Origin: Actinomycetota bacterium
Lineage (GTDB): Bacteria; Actinomycetota; Acidimicrobiia; IMCC26256; VFJJ01
Assembly: GCA_009886115.1 (NCBI GenBank)
Contig: VFJJ01000057.1
Coordinates: forward strand, 1 to 58,287
Length of the DNA: 58,287 nucleotides
Direction: 5' to 3'
In this document: positions 19,998-34,692 of the stretch, piece by piece
Layout: every line of letters starts with the position of its first letter
Numbering within the stretch: the stretch's first letter is position 1
Position numbers and translations under genes: made by a program
Notes under the pieces: generated by a model
The model's database searches: none
Seen by the model: the letters and a program-made list of their open reading frames with translations, nothing else
Told to the model about the DNA's origin: nothing

Positions 19998-21095
19998 TCA
20001 CCCCGAGCGTTCGCACATTCCGTAGCCCGGTTCGCCGTCGCACTCGAAGCTGGCGAGCGACTGGCTCATCACCCGCGCCGCATCGGGTCGGAGGCCGAGT
20101 GCCCCGGCGGCCGCGGCCGCTGCCCCCATGGGCCTCGATCCCAGCTCGCCCAGACCGCCGAGACCCATCGACGTCCACACGGTTCGGTCGTCGCGTCCCG
20201 TGAGCCGGGTGAGGCCGAGGCTGTCGCAGGCCACTTCGACCACGAAGTCGGCCCGGGGATCGTCGCGGTTCACAGGCGGTGCGTAGATGATGCGGTTGGG
20301 GTGCACGGTCTCACCGTCCCACACGTAGGCCTCGCTGAACGCGTAGCCGCCCGAGGCGCCGTGGCGCATGTGACACTGCAGCCCAACGGCCCGTCCGCTC
20401 TCAGGGAACACGGCGCCGATCCACGTGTGGGCCTTGAAGCCTTCGAGGATCCGGACCCCACGCACGTGCCCCCGAAGGCCGTGCGCGTTGAACTCGTGGG
20501 CCGTGCGGTCGACCACGATGGTTCCCGTCGCCGAGATCGCCTGGTCGTAGCGAAACGCCGATCGCGACATGCCCGCCGTGAGACGACCGGCGATCCAGAG
20601 CCCGGCTGGCCCCTTCATCGCCTCGGCGGCCTCGGGCAGCAGCGAACCCTGCAGCCAGATGGGAGCCACTGTCGTGGCTTCGACATCGAGCGAGACGCGG
20701 ACCGTCGCCCCGTGGCTGACATCGCCCGTGGCGTGCTCGGCGTCGCTGCTCGTGGTGAGCGGGAAGTCGCGCAGCTGATAGGCCCAGCGCCGAAAGGGCT
20801 CGATGCAGTGGTAGCGCACGTGTGCCGTCTCGGGGGCGTCGGACCGGAGGATGGGCGCAGGATCGGGGCCTCCGGAGAGGATGCGCCCGTCGGGCAGGAA
20901 CACCACAGCGCGGCCCTGGGCCTCGCCGTCGTGCGCATGGATGCGCAACTCCACGCCGAGGTTGCGAGCCTTGTCGTGCAACCACACCACGAAGGTGTCG
21001 ATGACGGCCGGGTCGTCGGGGTGCGCCGCGGTGAGCGCATGGTCGTCGGTGGGCTCTCGCCCACTGGCGAACGGATCACTCGAGGGAGGCGCCAT
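19998..21095 (-). CDS. Conserved hypothetical protein (beta-barrel, DUF7064/7065-like, tentative)
   Basis: AGGAG RBS; coding-like composition; motifs CIEPFRRW, RYDQ..GTI, GLRGHVRGVR resemble the protein at 28336. Confidence 0.65.
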   Translation of the reverse strand: MAPPSSDPFASGREPTDDHALTAAHPDDPAVIDTFVVWLHDKARNLGVELRIHAHDGEAQGRAVVFLPDGRILSGGPDPAPILRSDAPETAHVRYHCIEPFRRWAYQLRDFPLTTSSDAEHATGDVSHGATVRVSLDVEATTVAPIWLQGSLLPEAAEAMKGPAGLWIAGRLTAGMSRSAFRYDQAISATGTIVVDRTAHEFNAHGLRGHVRGVRILEGFKAHTWIGAVFPESGRAVGLQCHMRHGASGGYAFSEAYVWDGETVHPNRIIYAPPVNRDDPRADFVVEVACDSLGLTRLTGRDDRTVWTSMGLGGLGELGSRPMGAAAAAAGALGLRPDAARVMSQSLASFECDGEPGYGMCERSG

Positions 21096-21963
21096 GTGGA
21101 TCTCCTGTCGCTTGGTGCCCAGTGACCGGGTCACCCGTCGCGCTCGGTCGACCCGGTGCGATCGGTGCGTTCGACGGGAGCAGGCGGAGATCCTCGGTCC
21201 ACACCGGCGAGATCAGCACCCGGAGCACCTCGTCGGCCACCTCGGCCGGCGTCATCTCGCTGGCGCGGGCCTGCCCTCGTCCGGCTCGGGCCTCGAAGAA
21301 GCCGGCGAGCGCAGCCGGGTCCCAGGCCGAGGCGAACTCGGTGCCGCTGGTGGGCCCGACGACGATGCGCAGGAAGGCGATCGTCGGGTGCTCGTTGCGC
21401 CAACCTCGGATCATCGCGTCGAGCGCCGCCTTGCTCGACCCGTACGGGACCAGAGCCGGGCGGGGATCTTCACTCGACACCGACGAGAGGTACGCGGCCC
21501 GTCCGTGACTCTCGGCGAGATGGTCGATGGCCGCTCGGGTCACGAGCGCGGCACCCACGACGTTGGTCTCGAGCACGGTTCGCCAAACGTCACCGTCGGT
21601 CGTCCTCAACGTGGACAAGGTCGAGACCCCGGTCGCGTACACGAGGGCGTCGAGGCCGCCGAGCGCGTTCAGTGCTTCGTCGACGAGACGGTCGCAGTCG
21701 TCGTCGCGGCGCACATCGGCGGTGATCGCGGTGATCGCAGGCGCGGGGAAGGGTGTCGCTTCCGGTCGATCGTCGGGAGCCCGAGCACGGGCACTCGCGA
21801 CTGCCGCTGCTTGCGCGCCAAGGGACTGCAGGCGATCGGTCCGCCGACCTGCGGCAGCCACGTGAGCACCCCGGGCCGCGGCGGCCACGGCGATGGCCCG
21901 TCCGATGCCCGACGACGCCCCCACGACCAGCAACCGCACGCCCGCCAGACCCGCCGTGCTCAC
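21076..21963 (-). CDS. SDR oxidoreductase
   Basis: VGASSGIG; YGSSK. Confidence 0.88.
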   Translation of the reverse strand: MSTAGLAGVRLLVVGASSGIGRAIAVAAAARGAHVAAAGRRTDRLQSLGAQAAAVASARARAPDDRPEATPFPAPAITAITADVRRDDDCDRLVDEALNALGGLDALVYATGVSTLSTLRTTDGDVWRTVLETNVVGAALVTRAAIDHLAESHGRAAYLSSVSSEDPRPALVPYGSSKAALDAMIRGWRNEHPTIAFLRIVVGPTSGTEFASAWDPAALAGFFEARAGRGQARASEMTPAEVADEVLRVLISPVWTEDLRLLPSNAPIAPGRPSATGDPVTGHQATGDPHGASLE

Positions 21964-23147
21964 GTGAGCTCGAGATACGGAGCGAAGCGCTCGCGGTAGA
22001 AGCCGAACCGTCGCCCCATCAGCTCGGGGTCGAGGCCGAAGTCGCTGGCGACGTAGGTGTGCCCGCCGTGCTGGTCACGGGGGTTGGCCGCCCACCACGC
22101 TCGCATCCGCGCCTCGGCATCGGGGCTCAACGGGGTCCCGAGCCACTTGTAGAGCCCGTGGACGGCGGCCACGGGATCGCGCTGGAACGCCGTGAACCCG
22201 ATGTCGTGGAAGCGGTGGTCGCGACCGGCATCGCGGAACGCGACCAGCCGCTCCATCGCGACCGTCCAGTGATGCGCGTTGAGCCTCCCGGCCTCGACCG
22301 GATCGACGTTCGTGGTGAGCATCTGCCTGACCTCGACGTAGAGATCGGCCACCGACGGCAACACGCTGGCCACGTCGCGATGGGTCATGACGAAACGGGT
22401 CTCGGGAAAGACCTTCTCGCGGTCGGCGAGAAAGAGCATGTGCGTGGGGCTCTTGAGTCGCCAGCTCTGGCGTGGGCGTCGCCACTGCAGCAGCTTGAGC
22501 GCCCGCTTCTCGTAGCGGTACATGGGCTCCATGTCGCAGTCGAGCAGCCAGTCGCTGTAGGTGGGGATGCTCACGAACGCTTGGAACGACTGGGCCTTGA
22601 ACTCCAAGCCCATCAGGTGGTGGTCTTCGTCGGGCCCGGTCGCCGACTGCGGCAGCATCGACTTGAGGCGAGGAGCCATGTGGTCCTGCGCCGCGATCTC
22701 GGCTGCAGCCGCGGCGATGCGTTCCTCGTCGGCCTCGGCCGACACGCCGGGGGGAGGGCACGGAGCCGATGCCTCCCACACGGTGAGGCATCGGGCCGAC
22801 GGATCCTGCGCCAGCATGAACGCCAGCGCCGTCGATCCGGTTCGGGGCAGGCCCAGCCCGAGCAGCTCGATCGTGACGTCCTGCTCGTCGATCTCGGGAT
22901 GACGGGCGTACCAGTCCTCGATGCGCAGCCGGTTGGCGAGCAGCCGGCTGAGCATGCCGTAGAAGGCGTCCTCGCCGAAGGGGTTGAACGACACCTCGGC
23001 CTCGACCGACCGCACCAGGACCTCGAGGCCCTCGCGCCAGGTGTCGCCCCCGAAGTCGGCGAGACCGGTCGAGCTGCGGGCCCCGTCGACCAGCAACTCG
23101 ATCCGGGATCTCACCGAGGACGCGCCCGGCGAAGTTGGCCAGCTCAT
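21960..23147 (-). CDS. Sulfotransferase (actinobacterial Stf-like)
   Basis: GLPRTGSTAL (5'-PSB), LKSPTH, MTHRD..S (3'-PB). Confidence 0.9.
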   Translation of the reverse strand: MSWPTSPGASSVRSRIELLVDGARSSTGLADFGGDTWREGLEVLVRSVEAEVSFNPFGEDAFYGMLSRLLANRLRIEDWYARHPEIDEQDVTIELLGLGLPRTGSTALAFMLAQDPSARCLTVWEASAPCPPPGVSAEADEERIAAAAAEIAAQDHMAPRLKSMLPQSATGPDEDHHLMGLEFKAQSFQAFVSIPTYSDWLLDCDMEPMYRYEKRALKLLQWRRPRQSWRLKSPTHMLFLADREKVFPETRFVMTHRDVASVLPSVADLYVEVRQMLTTNVDPVEAGRLNAHHWTVAMERLVAFRDAGRDHRFHDIGFTAFQRDPVAAVHGLYKWLGTPLSPDAEARMRAWWAANPRDQHGGHTYVASDFGLDPELMGRRFGFYRERFAPYLELT

Positions 23148-25139: not shown

Positions 25140-26825
25140 GTGGTCACGAACGTGCTCCATCAACACAGCGGCCCCGGAGTCACCTGGTCGAGGGTCAACA
25201 TGGCCGAGACCGTCGTGGGGGTCCAGACCCCGCTGAGCTGGTGTTGTTGGGACGAATTCGGCGAGCGTGCGTTTCGGATCGGGTACCGCCAGCTCAAGCT
25301 CGTACCCAAGGCGTTCTTGGAGGTCCCGGCGTCGATCGACGAGCAGTTCACCGCGATCTTCTTCGGGCAGGGTGCCTGCAACCTCGACGCATTCCGGGTG
25401 GCGCTCGCCGCCATGCCGGGCAACACCGGCGAGGCCGCAGAGGCAGGATTCTTCTCCTCGGCCGACACGGCGGGGAAGCGCCGCCGCACGATGGAGTCGC
25501 GGTGGCGACAGCTCGTCGTGCTGGTCTGGCTGCCGATGTACGAGCTCGGTGTGGCCCACCGCCTGGCCCGCATCCGCGCCGCCAGTCGAGAGCACTGGCG
25601 GCAGTGTCGGAGCGAGCTGCCGACCGCCGACCGTGCTCTCGCCACACGCCGGCTGCACGAGGCGCTCGGGCAGGCCGCCGACGAGGTCGCGGCCCAGATC
25701 GCCGTCTCGACCTTGGTGGGTATGGCCCACGGTGCGATCCAGGCGCTTCTCGATCGGGTCGGTCGTCGCGATCTCGAGCTGGTGCTGATCGGCGGATACG
25801 GCCACACCGAGGAGCTCGACATCGCCGCGGCCATGTGGACGGTCGCCCGTCAGGGTGGCGATGTCAGGGAGTTCCTTGACGAGCACGGGTTTCACGGTCC
25901 TGCCGAGGGCGAGCTGTCGAGCTCCTCGTGGCGCGAAGAGGCCAGCCCGGTCGAGTCGCTCGTCGAGAGCTTCCGGGGCATGCCGGCCGACGCCGACCCG
26001 CGCACCGCCGAGCGGGCGGCGATCGCTGCGAGGGAACGGGCCGAAGCGACGATCCTGCAAGGCCTCAACGGTCTCGATCGCTGGAGGGGGCGCCGCATCC
26101 TGGCCAAGGGCCGGCGCATCATCCCCTTGCGGGTCGTGGCCAAGGCGGCGTTCACCCAGACGTTCGACGTTGCCCGTATCGCAGCTCGAGTCATCGGTGC
26201 GCACCTGGTGGCCGAGGGCCGCCTGGATGACAGCGAGGACGTGTTCTACCTCTCGCTGGCTGAGATCGACGATCGCCAGTTCCCGGGTGATCTCCGCGAG
26301 GTCGTAGCGCAGCGCCGTGGGGTGCGGGATTCCTACGCGCGCATCGAGCTTCCGCTGATGTGGACCGGGATGCCCGAGCCGCTCACGGTGGCGCACGATG
26401 CAGTGCCATCCCACGGGGCCCGCCCGGGAGACGACGCGCTCGTCGGCATCGGGGTGAGCGCCGGAATCGTGGAAGGGCCGGCCCATGTCCTCGCCGACCC
26501 GGGTGACCCGTCAGCCTTCACGCCCGGCGACATCCTCGTGTGTCACACGACCGATCCGAGCTGGACGAGCTACTTCCTCATGGCCAGCGGCGTGGTCATC
26601 GACATCGGCGGTACCCTCAGCCACGGTGCGATCGTTGCCCGGGAGCTGGGGATCCCATGCGTGATGAACTATCCCGGCACCCGTGTGCTGCAGACCGGTG
26701 ATCGCATCCGCGTCGACGGCACCGCCGGCACCGTGACCGTCATCACCCGGGTCGGTTCCACCGGGCCGGCGCCATTCGAGGGTCCGGGAGCGCCGGGCTC
26801 GCCATCAGCCGAGGAGAAGACCTGA
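25140..26825 (+). CDS. PEP-utilising enzyme mobile (phosphohistidine) domain protein, no ATP-grasp domain; paralog 1
   Basis: C-terminus GDILVCHTTDPSW..GGTLSHGAIVARELGIPCV..IRVDG; central GFHGPAEGELSSSSWRE and DVFYL. Confidence 0.88.
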   Translation: MVTNVLHQHSGPGVTWSRVNMAETVVGVQTPLSWCCWDEFGERAFRIGYRQLKLVPKAFLEVPASIDEQFTAIFFGQGACNLDAFRVALAAMPGNTGEAAEAGFFSSADTAGKRRRTMESRWRQLVVLVWLPMYELGVAHRLARIRAASREHWRQCRSELPTADRALATRRLHEALGQAADEVAAQIAVSTLVGMAHGAIQALLDRVGRRDLELVLIGGYGHTEELDIAAAMWTVARQGGDVREFLDEHGFHGPAEGELSSSSWREEASPVESLVESFRGMPADADPRTAERAAIAARERAEATILQGLNGLDRWRGRRILAKGRRIIPLRVVAKAAFTQTFDVARIAARVIGAHLVAEGRLDDSEDVFYLSLAEIDDRQFPGDLREVVAQRRGVRDSYARIELPLMWTGMPEPLTVAHDAVPSHGARPGDDALVGIGVSAGIVEGPAHVLADPGDPSAFTPGDILVCHTTDPSWTSYFLMASGVVIDIGGTLSHGAIVARELGIPCVMNYPGTRVLQTGDRIRVDGTAGTVTVITRVGSTGPAPFEGPGAPGSPSAEEKT

Positions 26826-27223
26826 TGTTGCCCCGCCAGCAGGTTGTCGACGCCGTCATCGAGGCCCATCATCGCTGGAACACGAGAGACCGGGAGGGCT
26901 GGATCGCCATGTGGCATCCCGACGCGGTCATCGACGATCCTGTCGGTGCCCCGACGAAACACGGTCTCGCGGCGGTCGAGCAGAGCTGGGAGGCTGGTTT
27001 CTCGCAAGAGCCGTGGTTCGTCGTGCCCGGCGAGATCCACGTGTGCGGCAACGCCGCCGCGTTCACGGCGTCGCACCTCAGCATCCTCGAAGGGCGACGT
27101 GTGCTCATGACCGATATCGAGATCTGGGAGTTGGCCGACGACGGCCGATTCATCCGCGTGAAGGCCTATTACGAGCCACTCTCGGGGACCCCCGATTACT
27201 TCCTCCCGAGCACGTCGGGCTGA
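26825..27223 (+). CDS. SnoaL/NTF2-like (ketosteroid isomerase-like) protein
   Basis: DAVIDDPVG; DDGRFIRVKAYY; translationally coupled. Confidence 0.8.
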   Translation: MLPRQQVVDAVIEAHHRWNTRDREGWIAMWHPDAVIDDPVGAPTKHGLAAVEQSWEAGFSQEPWFVVPGEIHVCGNAAAFTASHLSILEGRRVLMTDIEIWELADDGRFIRVKAYYEPLSGTPDYFLPSTSG

Positions 27224-28269
27224 TGGCCGCCGCGGGTTCGAGCCCGTTCGACGAGTTCCTCGCCGTAGCCGACGAGGGTCGAGATGCGTTGCTCGGCCGA
27301 TATCACGACCTCGACCCGATCGAGCGGGCCGACGCGGAAGCCTTCTGCGCGCAGGTGATCGAGACGGCGTTGCAGCTCGTCGCTGTCGACGGCGCCCGGC
27401 CGGCTTTCGTGCCGTGGCAGACCCCGACACGCCGTTACACCGATAATGGCCTCGACTCGGTGTACCGCATGGCCTTCGTCGACGACGAGCATCGCTACCT
27501 GATCTGCGGCACCCGTACCGACGAGTGTTACCTGTCGATCTCACTCTACGCCGCCGATTCCGGTCAGCCCGACCGTCAGGTCAGCAGCGCGAACCACCTC
27601 GATCTCGGTGTCGACAGAGGCCGGAGCTTCGAGATGGAGTTGGCGCCGGCGGATGGAGGCACGATCGTCATCACGAGGCAGTACGTGGTCGACCCGCAGG
27701 CCGACGTGACCCGCCTGTTCCGTATCGGAGTGGTGGCCGGACCGCCCCCGAGCCCGGCGTCTCAGACCGCGACTGACGCCGGATGGGGTCGTGCCGCAGG
27801 CCTCGTCCGAGCGCTCACGACGGAGCCCCCACTGCGTCACCCTCCCCCGCCCTGGGTGTCGCACACGGTCAACACGATGGGCGATCCCAGTGGTTGGGAG
27901 ACCGATCCTCTCCCGGGCCGCAGCGCCGTCGATCAACGCTACGCGTCGGGGCCCTTCGACCTGGGCGACGGCGAGGCCTTGGTGATGGAGACCCGACTCC
28001 CTCGATGCGCTTACGCCAGTGCGACCGCGTGGAACCGCTTCTCCCAGAGCGTCGATCAACGGTTCCACCGCTCGACGATCAATCAGCGAACGGCGGTGCG
28101 CTCGGCCGACGGACGTGTGCGCGTCGTGGTGGCGCCGCGCGATCCGGGCGTGGCCAACTGGCTCGATACCGGCGGCCGGACCCGGGGATCGGTCTTCTGG
28201 CGGTTCCTGCTGGCCGAGGAGCCCGCTGAGGCGATCTCGTGCGAGGTGCTCCCGATCGATCGGCTCTGA
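27223..28269 (+). CDS. DUF1214-like protein
   Basis: DNGLDSVY..YLICG; ADGRVRVVVAPRDPGVANWLDTGG..G..FWR. Confidence 0.78.
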   Translation: MAAAGSSPFDEFLAVADEGRDALLGRYHDLDPIERADAEAFCAQVIETALQLVAVDGARPAFVPWQTPTRRYTDNGLDSVYRMAFVDDEHRYLICGTRTDECYLSISLYAADSGQPDRQVSSANHLDLGVDRGRSFEMELAPADGGTIVITRQYVVDPQADVTRLFRIGVVAGPPPSPASQTATDAGWGRAAGLVRALTTEPPLRHPPPPWVSHTVNTMGDPSGWETDPLPGRSAVDQRYASGPFDLGDGEALVMETRLPRCAYASATAWNRFSQSVDQRFHRSTINQRTAVRSADGRVRVVVAPRDPGVANWLDTGGRTRGSVFWRFLLAEEPAEAISCEVLPIDRL

Positions 28270-28335
28270 CGAGCACGGGTCGCTCCAGGCGTGAGCCCTC
28301 CACCGGAGCCTGTGACGGAGCCTCTGTCGGGGGCC

Positions 28336-29307
28336 TCAGGTGGGCCGGCGGGACTGTTCTCGGGCCTGGGCTCGGGCGAAGGCCCGGTAACGGTCGACGT
28401 GCCAGACGTCCTGGTCCTCTCCCCAGCCGACGGTCGAGACACCAGCTGAGCCCACGTACTCCCACCGGGTGAGGCTCACCCAGTTGAACATCCACGGGAT
28501 GTTGGTGAACGACGCCCGGTTCACGCACGTGCCCACCGCTTCGACGCGCCGGCCCAGCGAGTCGACCGCCCGCACGACGACGCGACGCGGCCACAGGCCG
28601 TCACGCTCGACGGTCCTCGTGCCGCTCACCAGGGCCGCCGCCTCGCCGTCGCGCCAGAGGTAGCCCATGACGACGGGAGCGCCGGCCGTGTCCGGGAGCG
28701 AGAAGGCCAGGAACGCCGAGTCGGCGCACTGGGCATGGTCGTAGCCCATGCGCAACGTCGGGTCCTCGATTCGGGGGCCCCACGACCGATCCCGGATGGC
28801 GTAGCAATCGACCGGGATCTCCTCGCCGTGCAGAACCATGCGCCCGGTCACGTGGCCCGGTTGGTCGACGTGCGCCGAGAACAGGCCGGGGGGATCTCCG
28901 CGGCCGAGCACATGGGGCTCCATGACGGCCCGGAACTCCACGTCGATCGAGCAGTCGGGGTGGTCGTAGGTGACGTGGTACGCGCTGAGCGGTTCCAGGC
29001 AGCGCACACCGATCCCAAGGGGGAACTGGAAGTCACGCAGATCCCCGAGCTTCGGCAGGGGGAGGCTCCACTGGTAGTTCCAGTGGAGGCTGTCCCACGG
29101 GAGGCACCCGGTGTCGTCCCACACCATGACCCCTCCTCCGAAGATGCCCATGTTCGGGCGCACCCAGGGATAGACGTAGGCCTGGATCCGCCGCTCGGGC
29201 ACCGAGATCGAGAACCAGGTCGTCTCGCTCCACAGGGGGTCGTCAGAAGCTGGGGGATGGAAGTTGTCGTCGCTGGCGTCGAGCCGAACTCCCTGGTCGC
29301 CGTGCAT
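28336..29307 (-). CDS. Conserved hypothetical protein (DUF7064/7065-like, tentative)
   Basis: DDNFH..WSETTWF, CLEPL, HVDQPG, IRDRSWGPR; TGATG coupling. Confidence 0.72.
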   Translation of the reverse strand: MHGDQGVRLDASDDNFHPPASDDPLWSETTWFSISVPERRIQAYVYPWVRPNMGIFGGGVMVWDDTGCLPWDSLHWNYQWSLPLPKLGDLRDFQFPLGIGVRCLEPLSAYHVTYDHPDCSIDVEFRAVMEPHVLGRGDPPGLFSAHVDQPGHVTGRMVLHGEEIPVDCYAIRDRSWGPRIEDPTLRMGYDHAQCADSAFLAFSLPDTAGAPVVMGYLWRDGEAAALVSGTRTVERDGLWPRRVVVRAVDSLGRRVEAVGTCVNRASFTNIPWMFNWVSLTRWEYVGSAGVSTVGWGEDQDVWHVDRYRAFARAQAREQSRRPT

Positions 29308-30908
29308 CAGATGCGCTCCGATCGCTCGAGGATCTCGACGGATCCCGTCGATCCGTCGATGCGGATCACATCGCCGGTGTGGAGCGTGCGGGTACCCGTC
29401 CGCGTGTTGATGACACAGGGGATACCCACCTCCCGGGCCACGATCGCGCCGTGGCTGAGAGCGCCACCGATGTCGATGACACATCCCGCGGCCACGAGGA
29501 AGTACGGGGCGTAGCTCGGGTCGGTCGTCTCGCACACGAGGATCTCGCCCGGTTCGAGATCGCCCGTGCTCGGGTCGAGCAACACCCGGACGATTCCCTC
29601 GGCCACACCCGGGCTCACGCCCACGCCCGAGACCGCGTCGGCAAGGCCCGCGGGCTCGAACGCTCGCGGCTCGACCATCCCCAGCCACGACTCGGGAAGG
29701 ACGATCGCGAGGTACTCGTCGTAGCGGGCCCGCCGGAACGCCACGAGCTCCGTGACATTGCTGGGCACCTCGGCGGTGAGCAGCTCGTCGACGGTGAGGA
29801 AGAACACGTCCTCGGGATCGTCGAGCAACCCTCGGCGCGCCCATTCGGCCCCGATCACACGGGCCTGGGCTCGCATGGCGTCGAGCATCTGCATCAGGCC
29901 CGCCTTGCCGATCTCGCGCAACGGAACGTAGGTGTGCGTTGCCCGGAGCAGCAGTCGTGCGTAGGGTCGGCGGTACCAGACCAGCGCGGCCACGAGCTCG
30001 CGCTCTGCTGCGATGCGCTCGTCAACCCGTGCCCGTTCGGCGACGCGGGGATCGGTACCGTCGTCCATCGAGCGGAGCGTGCTCACGAGGCGCTCGACCG
30101 GCGCCGGATCGTCGCGCCACGAACGGCTCGACATCTGGCCCTGGGCCGGGCCCTGGAAGCCGCGTCGAGCGAGGAACTCCGCGATGCTCAGCCGGTCGCG
30201 CGACACGGCCCAGAGATCGGCCGTGGTCTCGATCTCGATCGACTCGTGCCCGCCGAAGAGCGTGAGCATGAGATGGCTCTTGTCGACCGAGGCCAAGGTC
30301 TTGCCCAGCTGCTGGAACAGCGGCCCGCACAGAAGCGCGACGTTGGTGTGGGGTCGGGCCATCTGGTGGAAGCGCTCGCGGGCCTCGACGAACCGGCGAA
30401 AGGCTGTGGCTGCGTCGCCGCTCGATTCGGTGATGGCCTGACGCCAGAAACGCTCGTTGTCGGCGTGCACGCGACGCAGCCAGCGTGGCGTCCGGGCGAA
30501 CAGCACCGGGGTCTTGAGGAACACCACCGGATAGCGACGCCGCGAGTTGTTGCTCTCGACACCAGGACGTACCGAACCGAAGTAGTGCTCTTCGAGCGCG
30601 TCGCCCGAGGTGCCCGGTTGCAGGTCGGCCCACTGGCGCGAGAGGTCGACGTTCAGTGCCACCCGTCCGAAGAAGATCGACGACGTGCGGTGGTCGACGT
30701 CGTCGGGAGGCGGAGCGACCGTGGTGGAGAGGATCCCCATGTCGTGGTACGACTGGCGAATCATGCGCTCGTTGGCGTCGTCCCAGTGCGACCAGTTGAG
30801 CGGCGTACTCACCCCGGGGATGCCCTCGGCGATGTTCACGCGCGTCCAGGCGATACCGGGGCCCGAGACCCGATGGAGCGGATCGTTGAGTGCTGCCGGC
30901 TGTGCCAT
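29307..30908 (-). CDS. PEP-utilising enzyme mobile (phosphohistidine) domain protein; paralog 2
   Basis: GEILVCETTDPSY..GGALSHGAIVAREVGIPCV; N-terminus SGPG.W.RVN.AE..GV.TPL.W shared with paralog 1. Confidence 0.88.
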   Translation of the reverse strand: MAQPAALNDPLHRVSGPGIAWTRVNIAEGIPGVSTPLNWSHWDDANERMIRQSYHDMGILSTTVAPPPDDVDHRTSSIFFGRVALNVDLSRQWADLQPGTSGDALEEHYFGSVRPGVESNNSRRRYPVVFLKTPVLFARTPRWLRRVHADNERFWRQAITESSGDAATAFRRFVEARERFHQMARPHTNVALLCGPLFQQLGKTLASVDKSHLMLTLFGGHESIEIETTADLWAVSRDRLSIAEFLARRGFQGPAQGQMSSRSWRDDPAPVERLVSTLRSMDDGTDPRVAERARVDERIAAERELVAALVWYRRPYARLLLRATHTYVPLREIGKAGLMQMLDAMRAQARVIGAEWARRGLLDDPEDVFFLTVDELLTAEVPSNVTELVAFRRARYDEYLAIVLPESWLGMVEPRAFEPAGLADAVSGVGVSPGVAEGIVRVLLDPSTGDLEPGEILVCETTDPSYAPYFLVAAGCVIDIGGALSHGAIVAREVGIPCVINTRTGTRTLHTGDVIRIDGSTGSVEILERSERI

Positions 30909-31006
30909 CAGCAGATTCTACGAACTGCTCGCGCTGTGGTCATCTGCGTTACCCGGGTCGGCGATCACCTGCTCCGGCCGCCAGCGATGACGGTTCGGGC
31001 GGGTGC

Positions 31007-31986: not shown

Positions 31987-34452
31987 TCAGCGCGCCGGAA
32001 GCGGATCGGGAGCGAAGATCACGCCGTCGGCCTCCAGCTCGGCGATGGCGTCGGCGGAGTATCCCAGCTCGTGGAGGATCGCGGTGTTGTGCTCACCCCG
32101 TACGCATCCGGGGCGAGCCCGGCCGGGGGTGAGGCTCAAGTCGACGGGCACGCCGCTGCGTACCACCGTCCCGAAGAGAGGATGGCCGACCTCGAGCGAG
32201 CGTCCGGTCTCGCGCATCACGGGATCGTCGAGCGTGAAGGCCGACTGCGAGTCTTCCCGTACAGCCACACATCCCACGTCGACTCCAGCCAGCAGCGACT
32301 CCCACTCGGGCGCCGGACGTTCGGCGAACACCGCCGTCAGCTCCTCGATCAGCAAGGCGTCATTGGTGTTGCGGGCGGCGACGGTCGCGAACCTCGGATC
32401 GCTCGGCAACGCCTGGCGTCCGATGGCCTCGGTGAATCGTGTCCACTCCCCCTCGGTGGGAACGACGATGCACACCCAACCCTCGGCTGCCTCGTACAGG
32501 CGGCTCAGGGCGCCCGTCCCCATGTTCTCGGCGTCGCAGACCGGGACGGAGACCTTGTCGGCGTATGTGCAGAAGTCGTCGGAGTAGGCGAGAGCGTTGC
32601 CGCCGATCATGCTCGCGACCACGAACTGGCCTCGTCCCGTACGCCGCTGGTGCAGCACCCCCAAACAGATCGCCGGGAGCACGGCCAGCGCGGCGTTCGA
32701 GTCGCCGTCGACGATGTGCGCGAGCCGAGGCGCGATCACCGCCTGGAGCTCGGGGACGCTCAGGTCGACGTTGAGCTCGGGGTCGATCCAGTGGCCGACC
32801 TGTCGGCCGAAGCTGCCCGCGACGGCCTGCGCCGCTTGGGCGTAGAGGGCTCGGTGCGCATACGGGCCGTCGACGCCGTACCCGGCGGCGTGCACGTAGA
32901 CGATTCGCGGGTTGAGACGCGAGACGGTGTCGTGGTCGATGCCGAGGCGTTCGGCCACACCCGAACGAAAGCCGAGGACGAACACGTCGGCCTTCGCCAG
33001 CACCTCGTGGGCGATCTTGCGGCCTGCCTCGCTGGCGAGGTCGAGCGAGAGGCTCTCCTTGCCGCTCGTGGTCTTGACCGATCCGACCTCGGGGCCGAAC
33101 GAGCGCCGCATCGGATCGCCGACCCGGTCCTCGAGCTTGATGACCCGAGCCCCGAGGTCGGCGGCCATCGAGACCCCGAAGGGCATGGCGTAGAAGTATC
33201 CGAACTCGACGATCGTGACGCCCGTCAGCGGGCCCGCAGCGTGGCGACCGTCACCGTCACCGCCGCCGTCACCGGTTCCGTTGGCAGCCGGGACGGTGCT
33301 GGGGGAGCGAGGAGATGGGAGCGGGTCGTGGGCGTCGAGCGCCGGCGCCGAGCGCGTGATGACGGCCGGCGACCCCCGGAAGCCGGCGAGCGGTCCGACC
33401 TGGCGGACGGGACCGTGCACGGGATCGTCGACGGTGATGGCGTTGCCGTTGTGGACGATCTGCGGATGGTCGAGGCCCTCCTCGCTCGTGGCCGCGACCT
33501 CGAACGCGATGTCGGGATCGGCGAGCAGCAGCGGCAGCCACTCGGTGAGCGTCTTGGTGCGGAACGCCTCCCACATCTGGTCTTCCCAGACCTGGGCGTC
33601 CTCCGGGGAGTCGAACATCGGGAGGTTCTTGTTCTGCGGTAGGTCGAGGAGCGCGCCGAGCCCGGCGACGCGGGTGAGCGATTGGGCCTGGTGCGGCAAG
33701 ACCGTCGAGGTCTGGATGAACCGGCCGTCGCGCGTGCCGACGAGCAACCCGTAGCGGGTGAAGGCCATCGCGCCCGACTTGGTGTCGGCGACGCCGCTGT
33801 TGCCTGCCCGGCGCATCATCAGCGTGATCATCAACGAGAAGTAGTCGAGCGGGTCGAGACCCTGGACGAGCGTGGCGTCGACCCGCTGGCCGTGGCCCGT
33901 CTGGTCGCGAACGAGCAGAGCACCGGCGATCCCGCCCAGGGCCATCATCGCCGCTCCGTAGCTGCCCGAGAGCTGCGGGAAGTAGATCGGGCCGTTGCGC
34001 GGCGCGTACGACCCGCGGGCGAACACGCCGGCCTTGGCGGCCACGAGGGCCTCGTAACCCTTGAGCCTGCTGTAGTTCCCGGTTGGCCCGAACCCGCTGA
34101 TCGCGCAGTAGACGAGCGAGGGATCGGCGCCGCACAGCGCCGCTGCACCCACGACCCAGCCGTCGGCCACGCCGGGGCTGAACCCCTCGACGACGATGTC
34201 GGCGCCGGCAGCGAGCTCACGGACCCGCGCTCGCCCGGCCTCGGTGCGGAGGTCGGCGACCACGCTCTCCTTGCCCCGGTTCCAGACCAGGAATCCCGAC
34301 GGCGACAGCGTGCGCAGGCGATCGCCCCCGGGCGCCTCGATCTTGACGACCCGGGCGCCGAGATCGGCCAGGACCATCCCCACCATCGAAGCAGCCGCGC
34401 TCCCGGCGCCCATCTCGATGACGGTCAGCCCACCGCAGATCGTGTGGTTCAC
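31987..34452 (-). CDS. Double-domain CaiB/BaiF family III CoA-transferase
   Basis: Two repeats: LADLGARVVKIE..GDRLR..NRGKES and ADLGARVIKLE..GDPMR..GKES; C-terminal GEHN. Confidence 0.88.
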   Translation of the reverse strand: MNHTICGGLTVIEMGAGSAAASMVGMVLADLGARVVKIEAPGGDRLRTLSPSGFLVWNRGKESVVADLRTEAGRARVRELAAGADIVVEGFSPGVADGWVVGAAALCGADPSLVYCAISGFGPTGNYSRLKGYEALVAAKAGVFARGSYAPRNGPIYFPQLSGSYGAAMMALGGIAGALLVRDQTGHGQRVDATLVQGLDPLDYFSLMITLMMRRAGNSGVADTKSGAMAFTRYGLLVGTRDGRFIQTSTVLPHQAQSLTRVAGLGALLDLPQNKNLPMFDSPEDAQVWEDQMWEAFRTKTLTEWLPLLLADPDIAFEVAATSEEGLDHPQIVHNGNAITVDDPVHGPVRQVGPLAGFRGSPAVITRSAPALDAHDPLPSPRSPSTVPAANGTGDGGGDGDGRHAAGPLTGVTIVEFGYFYAMPFGVSMAADLGARVIKLEDRVGDPMRRSFGPEVGSVKTTSGKESLSLDLASEAGRKIAHEVLAKADVFVLGFRSGVAERLGIDHDTVSRLNPRIVYVHAAGYGVDGPYAHRALYAQAAQAVAGSFGRQVGHWIDPELNVDLSVPELQAVIAPRLAHIVDGDSNAALAVLPAICLGVLHQRRTGRGQFVVASMIGGNALAYSDDFCTYADKVSVPVCDAENMGTGALSRLYEAAEGWVCIVVPTEGEWTRFTEAIGRQALPSDPRFATVAARNTNDALLIEELTAVFAERPAPEWESLLAGVDVGCVAVREDSQSAFTLDDPVMRETGRSLEVGHPLFGTVVRSGVPVDLSLTPGRARPGCVRGEHNTAILHELGYSADAIAELEADGVIFAPDPLPAR

Positions 34453-34692
34453 TGTCGCTCCCGCGGCGATTGACGGACGTGGGCACTGTACGGGGAGGCG
34501 CCGGCCCGAGGAAAGCGGCATCTCCCCGCCCGCCGCCACCGGTTGCCGCCCGTTCTCGCGCGTTCATTTCCCTTCCTTTCACTTCCTTTTCCTTCCATTC
34601 GTGTTCGCTGACCTCGGCTCCCGTCCGCTCCCGGTCAGCACACCGCGGGATCGGTACGCTCGTCGAGGCGTTGCGAGGGGGAGGGGAGCCGG

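Follow-up and report, generated by a model that had tools for sequence, protein, structure and literature searches.

How does a phosphotransferase that carries a phosphohistidine swivel domain, but no nucleotide-binding domain, obtain its phosphate? The question is posed by a 58,287-nucleotide contig of an Actinomycetota bacterium (VFJJ01000057.1, assembly GCA_009886115.1; here called the window), on which two convergent genes, A and B, encode swivel paralogs of 561 and 533 amino acids. An original prediction made from the sequence had taken them to be small-molecule phosphotransferases that are charged in trans, or that run from a phosphorylated substrate, within an undescribed activation pathway. 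Our analysis of this genome (G000; 224 contigs, 95.6% complete), of a congener (G001; 94% complete), and of wider sets of relatives leads us to favor, with moderate confidence, a model in which A and B are ATP-grasp-less small-molecule hydroxyl kinases with the fold of rifampin phosphotransferase (RPH), charged in trans via a protein of the Rv1126c family, probably with phosphate from phosphoenolpyruvate (PEP) supplied by a donor encoded on contig C158. Neighborhood, fusion, and profile evidence supports both charging in trans and the existence of such an undescribed pathway.

A and B have the RPH fold and no ATP-grasp domain

Both genes have the marks of genuine coding sequence. Their GC content at third codon positions is coding-like (0.85 and 0.86 for A and B, compared with 0.74–0.75 in two shadow open reading frames), the two proteins are 41% identical across 539 aligned residues, and each retains the motif SHGAIVARE around its swivel histidine, as originally predicted. 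PF00391 was the sole Pfam match of either protein in a local library scan; a homolog search with the N terminus of B also listed PF27448. In a comparison with 5FBU (E = 7e-22, TMq 0.70), the AlphaFold model of B (pLDDT 95) matches the rifampin-binding and swivel domains of RPH from end to end, and A is assigned to the same fold through its identity to B. These results bear out the claims of a large N-terminal substrate-type domain and of a missing nucleotide-binding domain. A cryptic ATP-grasp domain in the N terminus was ruled out by the Pfam scan and by the B model, which leaves no space for one.

RPH-Lm (PDB 5FBS, 5FBT, 5FBU, and 5HV1; PMC4844700) shares with A and B the substrate-domain fold and a C-terminal swivel histidine, and with B the Arg-Glu-x-x-Lys acceptor motif (R331, E332, and K335). 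However, A and B lack its ATP-grasp domain and are only 18–19% identical to it in structural alignment; against NF041857, which has a cut-off of 999 bits, they score 125–129 bits. A further difference, missed by the original prediction, is that A has Val332 in place of the Glu of this motif while keeping R331 and K335. In RPH, the corresponding Arg666 and Glu667 are reported to be required for the second half-reaction (PMC4844700). A forms a clade (support 0.999) with the family members at loci L057 and L085, all three of which read R-V-x-x-K; decay or sequence error as the origin of the substitution was ruled out because these two orthologs, at 51% identity, have Val too. The swivel histidine is invariant in 110 of 110 family sequences. 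Acceptor activity is very probable for B and rather probable for A.

The family is linked to a PPDK-derived donor and a third protein

G000 contains eight PF00391 matches and a single PF01326 match, which is part of a complete PEP synthase encoded on contig C42. A search of the genome for a stand-alone ATP-grasp gene, proposed along with the original prediction, found none by PF01326, TIGR01828, or two home-built grasp profiles. In G001, 12 swivel matches accompany one grasp, which is again that of PEP synthase, and the same C158-type protein, so that the lack of a dedicated grasp is unlikely to stem from a gap in a single assembly. Five full-length grasp-less swivel proteins of 533–579 amino acids are encoded in G000, namely A, B, and three acceptors of other subfamilies (C108:821-2560, C60:4405-6078, and C23:31392-33059), relatives of which adjoin PEP-type donors at loci L241 and L267. 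A swivel match at C148:24206-24316 was rejected as a gene and left uncounted; it is a remnant of about 50 residues with the histidine motif intact and no plausible full gene around it.

With the N-terminal 420 residues of B as query, 7,998 candidates were scored and 175 homologs found, mostly of 520–560 amino acids. From 576 stretches confirmed in a genome scan, the best 74 loci were taken, of which 68 were counted after L106, L110, and L112–L115, which hold partial or distant three-domain proteins, had been dropped; neighborhoods reached as far as 10 kb to either side of the family member. A stand-alone PEP synthase (PEPS)-type grasp occurs in 0/68 loci and, with none in G000, the comparison with phenylphosphate synthase, whose domains are split over subunits, misleads as to the partner. 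What is associated is not a grasp subunit but a donor that derives from PPDK and carries a swivel of its own, together with an Rv1126c-family protein. A VadK-type gene (PPDK-type grasp plus swivel) is present in 24 loci, a 200-residue Rv1126c-like protein in 28, and the two together in 23. Both VadK-type donors tested (2/2) passed the NF004531/PRK05878 cut-off.

Fusions are known in every combination of acceptor, donor, and partner. Donor and partner are fused at L056, L085, and L111, and acceptor and partner in P0095, P0100, P0103, and L154; at L063, acceptor, donor, and the 200-residue domain form one open reading frame with two swivels, directly behind a DUF7064 gene 59% identical to the gene coupled to B. 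The orthologs of A adjoin either the 200-residue gene (L057) or a donor fused to the 200-residue domain (L085). In five loci (L087, L088, L094, L097, and L098) the family member is itself fused to a PEPS-type grasp. These members are scattered in a clade with Gly in place of the acceptor-site Glu, often beside grasp-less paralogs, a pattern that suggests repeated fusion or loss of the grasp.

The partner matches the Rv1126c family

Because a homolog search with the partner returned no Rv number, its identity was checked by primer and synteny. A published vadK primer matches exactly in one of 401 genomes of the genus Mycobacterium, and the gene immediately downstream of it matches the partner profile (E = 5e-76, 246 bits); judged by its position, this gene is Rv1126c. 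The same profile matches the C-terminal domain of C158, which is in the profile's seed, with 206 bits. Co-expression with Rv1126c has been reported to raise the solubility of VadK, and a 2 M NaCl wash to have been used for separating the two proteins (PMC13400623).

The distribution of the partner follows that of the grasp-less acceptors. Counted by genome (with L106 retained and several loci of one genome counted once), the partner is present in 56 of the 63 genomes with a family member: it was already seen in 25, and a search of the other 38 found it in 31. Two of the seven genomes without it carry a cis-grasp member. Across 61 genomes of the order, swivels outnumber grasp genes in 27 of the 28 that have the partner and in 4 of the 33 that do not, these four being only 70–85% complete. 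When the count is confined to 45 good genomes of relatives, 22/22 with the partner have surplus swivels, compared with 0/23 without it; for a surplus of at least two, the figures are 16/22 and 0/23. Of 81 Actinomycetes, 12 have the partner, including all five with a full-length family member, three of which are new. It is quite likely that the acceptors depend on the Rv1126c-like partner. Genomes G187 and G227, with at least 11 and at least 12 family matches, respectively, and one partner match each, look like a single hub with many acceptors.

Other swivel genes also lie near the partner. A 110-residue swivel gene (SGTPxSHIGIVSRE) is divergent from the Rv1126c-like gene at L124, L125, L126, L134, L137, L138, and L146, and is found more widely at L178–L184, in some cases near mdh, icd, and folD; its stand-alone product is possibly a free phosphocarrier. 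At L189:2477-14675, two tandem genes that join epimerase, RPH-like, and swivel regions, the architecture of Rv2047c, have an Rv1126c-like gene at a distance of about 3 kb, and Rv2047c-like architectures lie near the partner gene in genome G018.

In the partner model, a winged helix is joined to a bundle of four helices. All of 79 partner sequences have S172, H181, and R192, and 78 of them have H174; these conserved residues sit in the bundle and not in the winged helix, of which helices 2–3 are shortened in 22/79. Databases name the family MarR (1,907 matches). Foldseek gave no match for the partner at E ≤ 0.001, and a wider search yielded nothing beyond winged helices and generic bundles. The best structural match of the bundle is p130Cas (Z 12.8, root-mean-square deviation 1.9, 111 aligned residues), which is in the range of common helical matches, and an Atlas search named no family. 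We regard it as an even question whether the partner acts as a phosphocarrier.

C158 is a candidate PEP-type donor

The sole partner domain of G000 is fused within the C158 protein. This protein is PPDK-like (573 bits with TIGR01828, compared with 158 with PTS-I), and the HPr-binding domain PF05524 has no match in G000, whereas 7 of 14 control genomes match it. Among the matches listed (167 were found), 117 of 120 have the PF00391 plus PF02896 architecture, the remaining three are shorter proteins with PF02896 only, and none has PF01326. All 116 C158-type proteins of at least 700 amino acids keep the swivel histidine and five barrel (PEP-site) motifs; a sixth PEP-site motif is present in 81/116 by a strict pattern, and grasp motifs in none. 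The conserved architecture and the kept motifs rule out C158 as a broken PPDK.

Among 106 genomes of an order-level search, the PEP-type donor occurs in G000 and G001 only. Genomes G383 and G481 combine a PEP-type donor with five and three grasp-less swivel frames (575–641 amino acids), respectively, one of which is on the donor's contig, 6–12 kb from the donor; in three more genomes that have the partner, a single PPDK-type grasp gene goes with surplus swivels. The pattern is one in which PPDK can lose either end, or its barrel can degenerate, with swivel and partner retained, as would be expected if the partner were the swivel's second client. Given partner dependence, C158 is likely to be the phosphate donor in this genome. 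Two loci show related arrangements: at L209:5187-9804, two swivel-domain frames, one also with a NUDIX domain, come right after a PEP-type donor, and at L191:5947-10537 a small swivel gene and two Rv1126c-like genes accompany a PPDK with degenerate barrel motifs, which looks like an intermediate toward VadK.

A proposed phosphate relay

In the relay that we propose, the C158 protein, in which a swivel, a PEP/pyruvate barrel, and an Rv1126c-like domain are seen and an ATP-grasp is absent, would be phosphorylated by PEP on its swivel histidine, as the chemistry of PPDK and Enzyme I suggests; its motifs are intact. The phosphate would then pass to the swivel histidine of the acceptor via the Rv1126c-like four-helix domain, probably through a conserved histidine of that domain (H174 or H181), or otherwise with the domain serving as a docking adaptor. 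As in RPH, the acceptor swivel would swing to the substrate cleft and phosphorylate an alcohol or phenol. In the last and weakest step, the product of B would lose its phosphate through the coupled DUF7064/DUF7065 protein, a net dehydration of the kind attributed to 25-phosphosteroid lyase. A single C158 donor would serve all five full-length grasp-less acceptors of G000, and in other bacteria the donor half would be either a VadK-type protein fed by ATP or a complete PPDK.

There is perhaps an even chance that this is a general relay, parallel to the PTS (PEP:sugar phosphotransferase system), across actinobacteria and Myxococcota. In that case, PPDK or one half of it would pass phosphate to an Rv1126c-family phosphohistidine carrier and thence to grasp-less RPH-fold kinases, often with DUF7064/DUF7065 dehydration, and the Mycobacterium tuberculosis version would run from VadK through Rv1126c to Rv2047c, with mycoketide as substrate. 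A distant line of genetic support is that transposon sequencing (Tn-seq) places Rv1126c, ppdK/VadK, Rv2047c, and pks12 in one shared profile, four genes out of 165 that vary; they are nonessential in carboxymycobactin (cMBT), hemin, hemoglobin, and 7H10 but essential or growth-defective in three mycobactin conditions, and Rv1126c and ppdK are in one operon (PMC7058343). The Rv2047c swivel has been proposed to act in mycoketide phosphorylation (PMC2443190). Genome G776 has at least two swivel matches (3 of 29 candidates scored), and its sole grasp candidate is that of VadK. The second of these swivels we take, by its position, to be Rv2047c.

Coupled genes and a candidate lyase

Translational coupling to SnoaL, DUF1214-like, and β-barrel genes had been predicted, and a TGATG stop/start overlap is present at all three junctions (A/SnoaL, SnoaL/DUF1214-like, and B/DUF7064–DUF7065; Table 1). 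The SnoaL protein has ketosteroid isomerase matches at E = 2e-7, and a close homolog of its gene adjoins the ortholog of A at L057; the DUF1214-like protein matches the uncharacterized PDB entry 6ANS (E = 3e-19), and a homolog follows the ortholog of A at L085. The region between the convergent operons showed no terminator. A promoter-like site upstream of B (one seen, compared with 0.5 expected by chance) is a weak indication of what would be a near-leaderless transcript.

The protein coupled to B may link the locus to a known dehydration chemistry. As a single sequence it had no match in the PDB and did not reach the lyase, but a profile of it and 12 relatives matches 25-phosphosteroid lyase (E = 1e-8) across the motif RDRSWG, the Asp of which is Asn in PDB 9G4C. 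Of the 74 loci, 19 have a DUF7064-like gene within 400 nucleotides of the family member and in the same orientation. The steroid kinase–lyase tandem is reported to dehydrate an alcohol by way of its phosphate (PMC8449060, PMC11061730), and B and its coupled gene may carry out a similar phosphorylate-then-eliminate dehydration. The 25-hydroxysteroid kinase and 25-phosphosteroid lyase (PMC8449060; PDB 9FZN, 9G2I, and 9G4C) share this logic, and RDRSWG recurs in the coupled gene of B. In contrast to the proposed relay, the steroid kinase is reported to take ATP directly via a ternary complex (PMC8449060), and the homology of the lyase to the barrel protein is distant. We tentatively assign the DUF7064/DUF7065 protein as a phosphate-eliminating lyase, a prediction that falls somewhat short of an even chance.

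Elsewhere in the window, a second DUF7064-like gene, without RDRSWG, stands behind a short-chain dehydrogenase/reductase (SDR) gene and a sulfotransferase gene (19998-23147), where sulfation may take the place of phosphorylation as the activation step. Acyl-CoA, SDR, and CoA-transferase genes are abundant in the window, and an 850-residue protein (31987-34539), each half of which is a CoA-transferase family III unit, is encoded upstream of the SDR gene that precedes B.

Table 1. Positions of the genes and sites discussed (window coordinates unless a contig is given)
Feature	Coordinates	Strand	Remarks
Predicted acceptor phosphotransferase A, 561 aa, GTG start	25140..26825	+	RPH-type substrate domain + swivel
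A swivel His495	26622-26624	+	
A variant acceptor site R331-V332-x-x-K335	26130-26144	+	
SnoaL/ketosteroid-isomerase-like protein, 132 aa	26825..27223	+	PF12680; TGATG-coupled to A
DUF1214-like protein, 348 aa	27223..28269	+	PF06742 below cut-off; TGATG-coupled
DUF7064/DUF7065 protein, 323 aa	28336..29307	-	Distant homolog of 25-phosphosteroid lyase; TGATG-coupled to B
RDRSWG motif of DUF7064/DUF7065 protein	28777-28794	-	
Predicted acceptor phosphotransferase B, 533 aa, ATG start	29307..30908	-	RPH-type substrate domain + swivel
B swivel His486	29451-29453	-	
B intact acceptor site R331-E332-x-x-K335	29904-29918	-	
Promoter-like site ATGACC-17-TAGAAT	30915..30943	-	Ends 7 nt before the ATG of B; weak
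Candidate PEP-type donor	C158:5223-7679		PPDK swivel + intact PEP/pyruvate barrel + 200-aa Rv1126c-like C-terminal domain; no ATP-grasp

Alternative explanations

Several observations weigh against the proposed relay. The C158 donor lies on another contig than A and B, amid unrelated genes; a grasp-less swivel gene is near the donor in only 3 of 22 metagenomic loci, many of them on short contigs; and the A/B subfamily occurs with a PEP-type donor only in G000, G001 giving a weak partial match. Five of the 63 family genomes, of unstated completeness, have neither partner nor cis grasp. The swivel and grasp counts come from genomes that are kin and thus nonindependent, with only part of the candidates scored, and where the surplus is a single swivel, it is in many cases the 110-residue gene next to the partner. 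The RPH Glu is missing from A and from at least 40 of 109 family sequences, and the lyase link is a 13-sequence profile over about 110 positions. For M. tuberculosis, the filtered VadK coimmunoprecipitation table contains neither Rv2047c nor Rv1126c, the authors prefer control of the methylcitrate cycle, and the lipid section of that report covers phthiocerol dimycocerosate (PDIM) and sulfolipid-1 (SL-1) with no mention of mycoketides (PMC13400623).

One alternative is that A and B are ordinary H subunits of two-component dikinases, charged by the PEP synthase grasp on C42 or by a gene missing from a 224-contig assembly. HpeHI, CreHI, and PpsAB are reported to operate via a transient complex (PMC12167813), and the five fusions to a PEPS-type grasp indicate that a family swivel is evidently able to take phosphate from a grasp. 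Those systems resemble A and B in having a separate substrate domain and swivel protein that needs charging in trans, but they have a dedicated grasp subunit, whereas here none is near A and B or in either genome and the associated donor has its own swivel, plus a third protein. PRK08296 models match A and B at the swivel only, at no more than 108 bits against cut-offs of 578–730. We presume that PRK08296 corresponds to the H subunits of two-component dikinases. A missing grasp also sits poorly with the empty neighborhoods of the counted loci and with a congener that has PEP synthase only; in G051 and in G007, the stand-alone grasp is next to another swivel protein, outside the family of B; and good genomes without the Rv1126c-like gene have no surplus swivels, although most have PPDK or PEP synthase. 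We consider this alternative unlikely.

Equally unlikely, in our judgment, is a relay that serves regulation. The donor would then set the phosphorylation state of the Rv1126c-like protein, a winged-helix regulator, and acceptors with bound ligand would drain it, A and certain others being sensors instead of enzymes. The partner does contain a MarR-like winged helix (Z about 12) in keeping with its database name, the acceptor-site Glu has been lost across whole clades, and VadK has been reported as regulatory (PMC13400623). However, the conserved residues lie in the bundle while the winged helix is shortened in many sequences, the partner domain is often fused to large enzymes, and up to 12 acceptor copies occur beside catabolic genes.

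It is less probable still that no protein donor is involved and that the enzymes shift phosphate between small molecules, or hydrolyze phosphate, via their own histidine. HpeH alone is reported to move phosphate from 4-phosphoacetophenone to acetovanillone (PMC12167813), and 14 DUF7064-like genes are present in G000, most of them far from any swivel gene. The part of the original prediction that had A and B running from a phosphorylated substrate is possible in itself, but it does not account for the association with donor and partner in neighborhoods, fusions, and profiles. Finally, that A and B are inactive RPH-like genes decaying after loss of the grasp is very improbable, since the missing grasp and the lost Glu of A, which would fit such decay, stand against a large family of mostly uniform length with an invariant histidine and a substitution common to the orthologs of A.

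Relation to known systems and implications

In its mode of action, the proposed system would resemble a two-component dikinase that receives its phosphate from a PTS-like relay, but it would be a member of neither family. VadK (Rv1127c) with Rv1126c is similar in having a half-PPDK donor and the same partner family, but VadK (PRK05878) has grasp and swivel and no barrel, whereas C158 is the reciprocal half, fused to the partner; the available text on VadK proposes neither a small-molecule acceptor nor a role for Rv1126c (PMC13400623). Rv2047c (PRK05865; PMC2443190, PMC7058343) likewise has an RPH-like region and swivel with no grasp match at its gene, but it has an N-terminal epimerase/reductase domain that is absent from A and B. 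The donor here is PPDK-like, lacks PF05524, and would use a helical bundle as its presumed carrier. In these respects it differs from the PTS (Enzyme I and HPr) and DhaKLM, in which a swivel-plus-barrel donor feeds soluble acceptors through a PEP-driven histidine-to-histidine relay. No description of a relay of this kind was found in the literature searched, subscription papers and preprint supplements lying outside the search.

If this model is correct, it would provide a mode of action for the large family of grasp-less genes annotated as PEP-utilizing enzymes and a role for a large family now labeled MarR, and it would constitute a way of supplying small-molecule kinases from PEP, a counterpart of the PTS with PPDK as its building material. 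The three-protein system of G000 can be tested in vitro without knowledge of the substrate. The model would also tie DUF7064/DUF7065 proteins to phosphate elimination, and it would turn the questions of the VadK target and of the mycoketide kinase into one specific prediction, in keeping with the published Tn-seq data.

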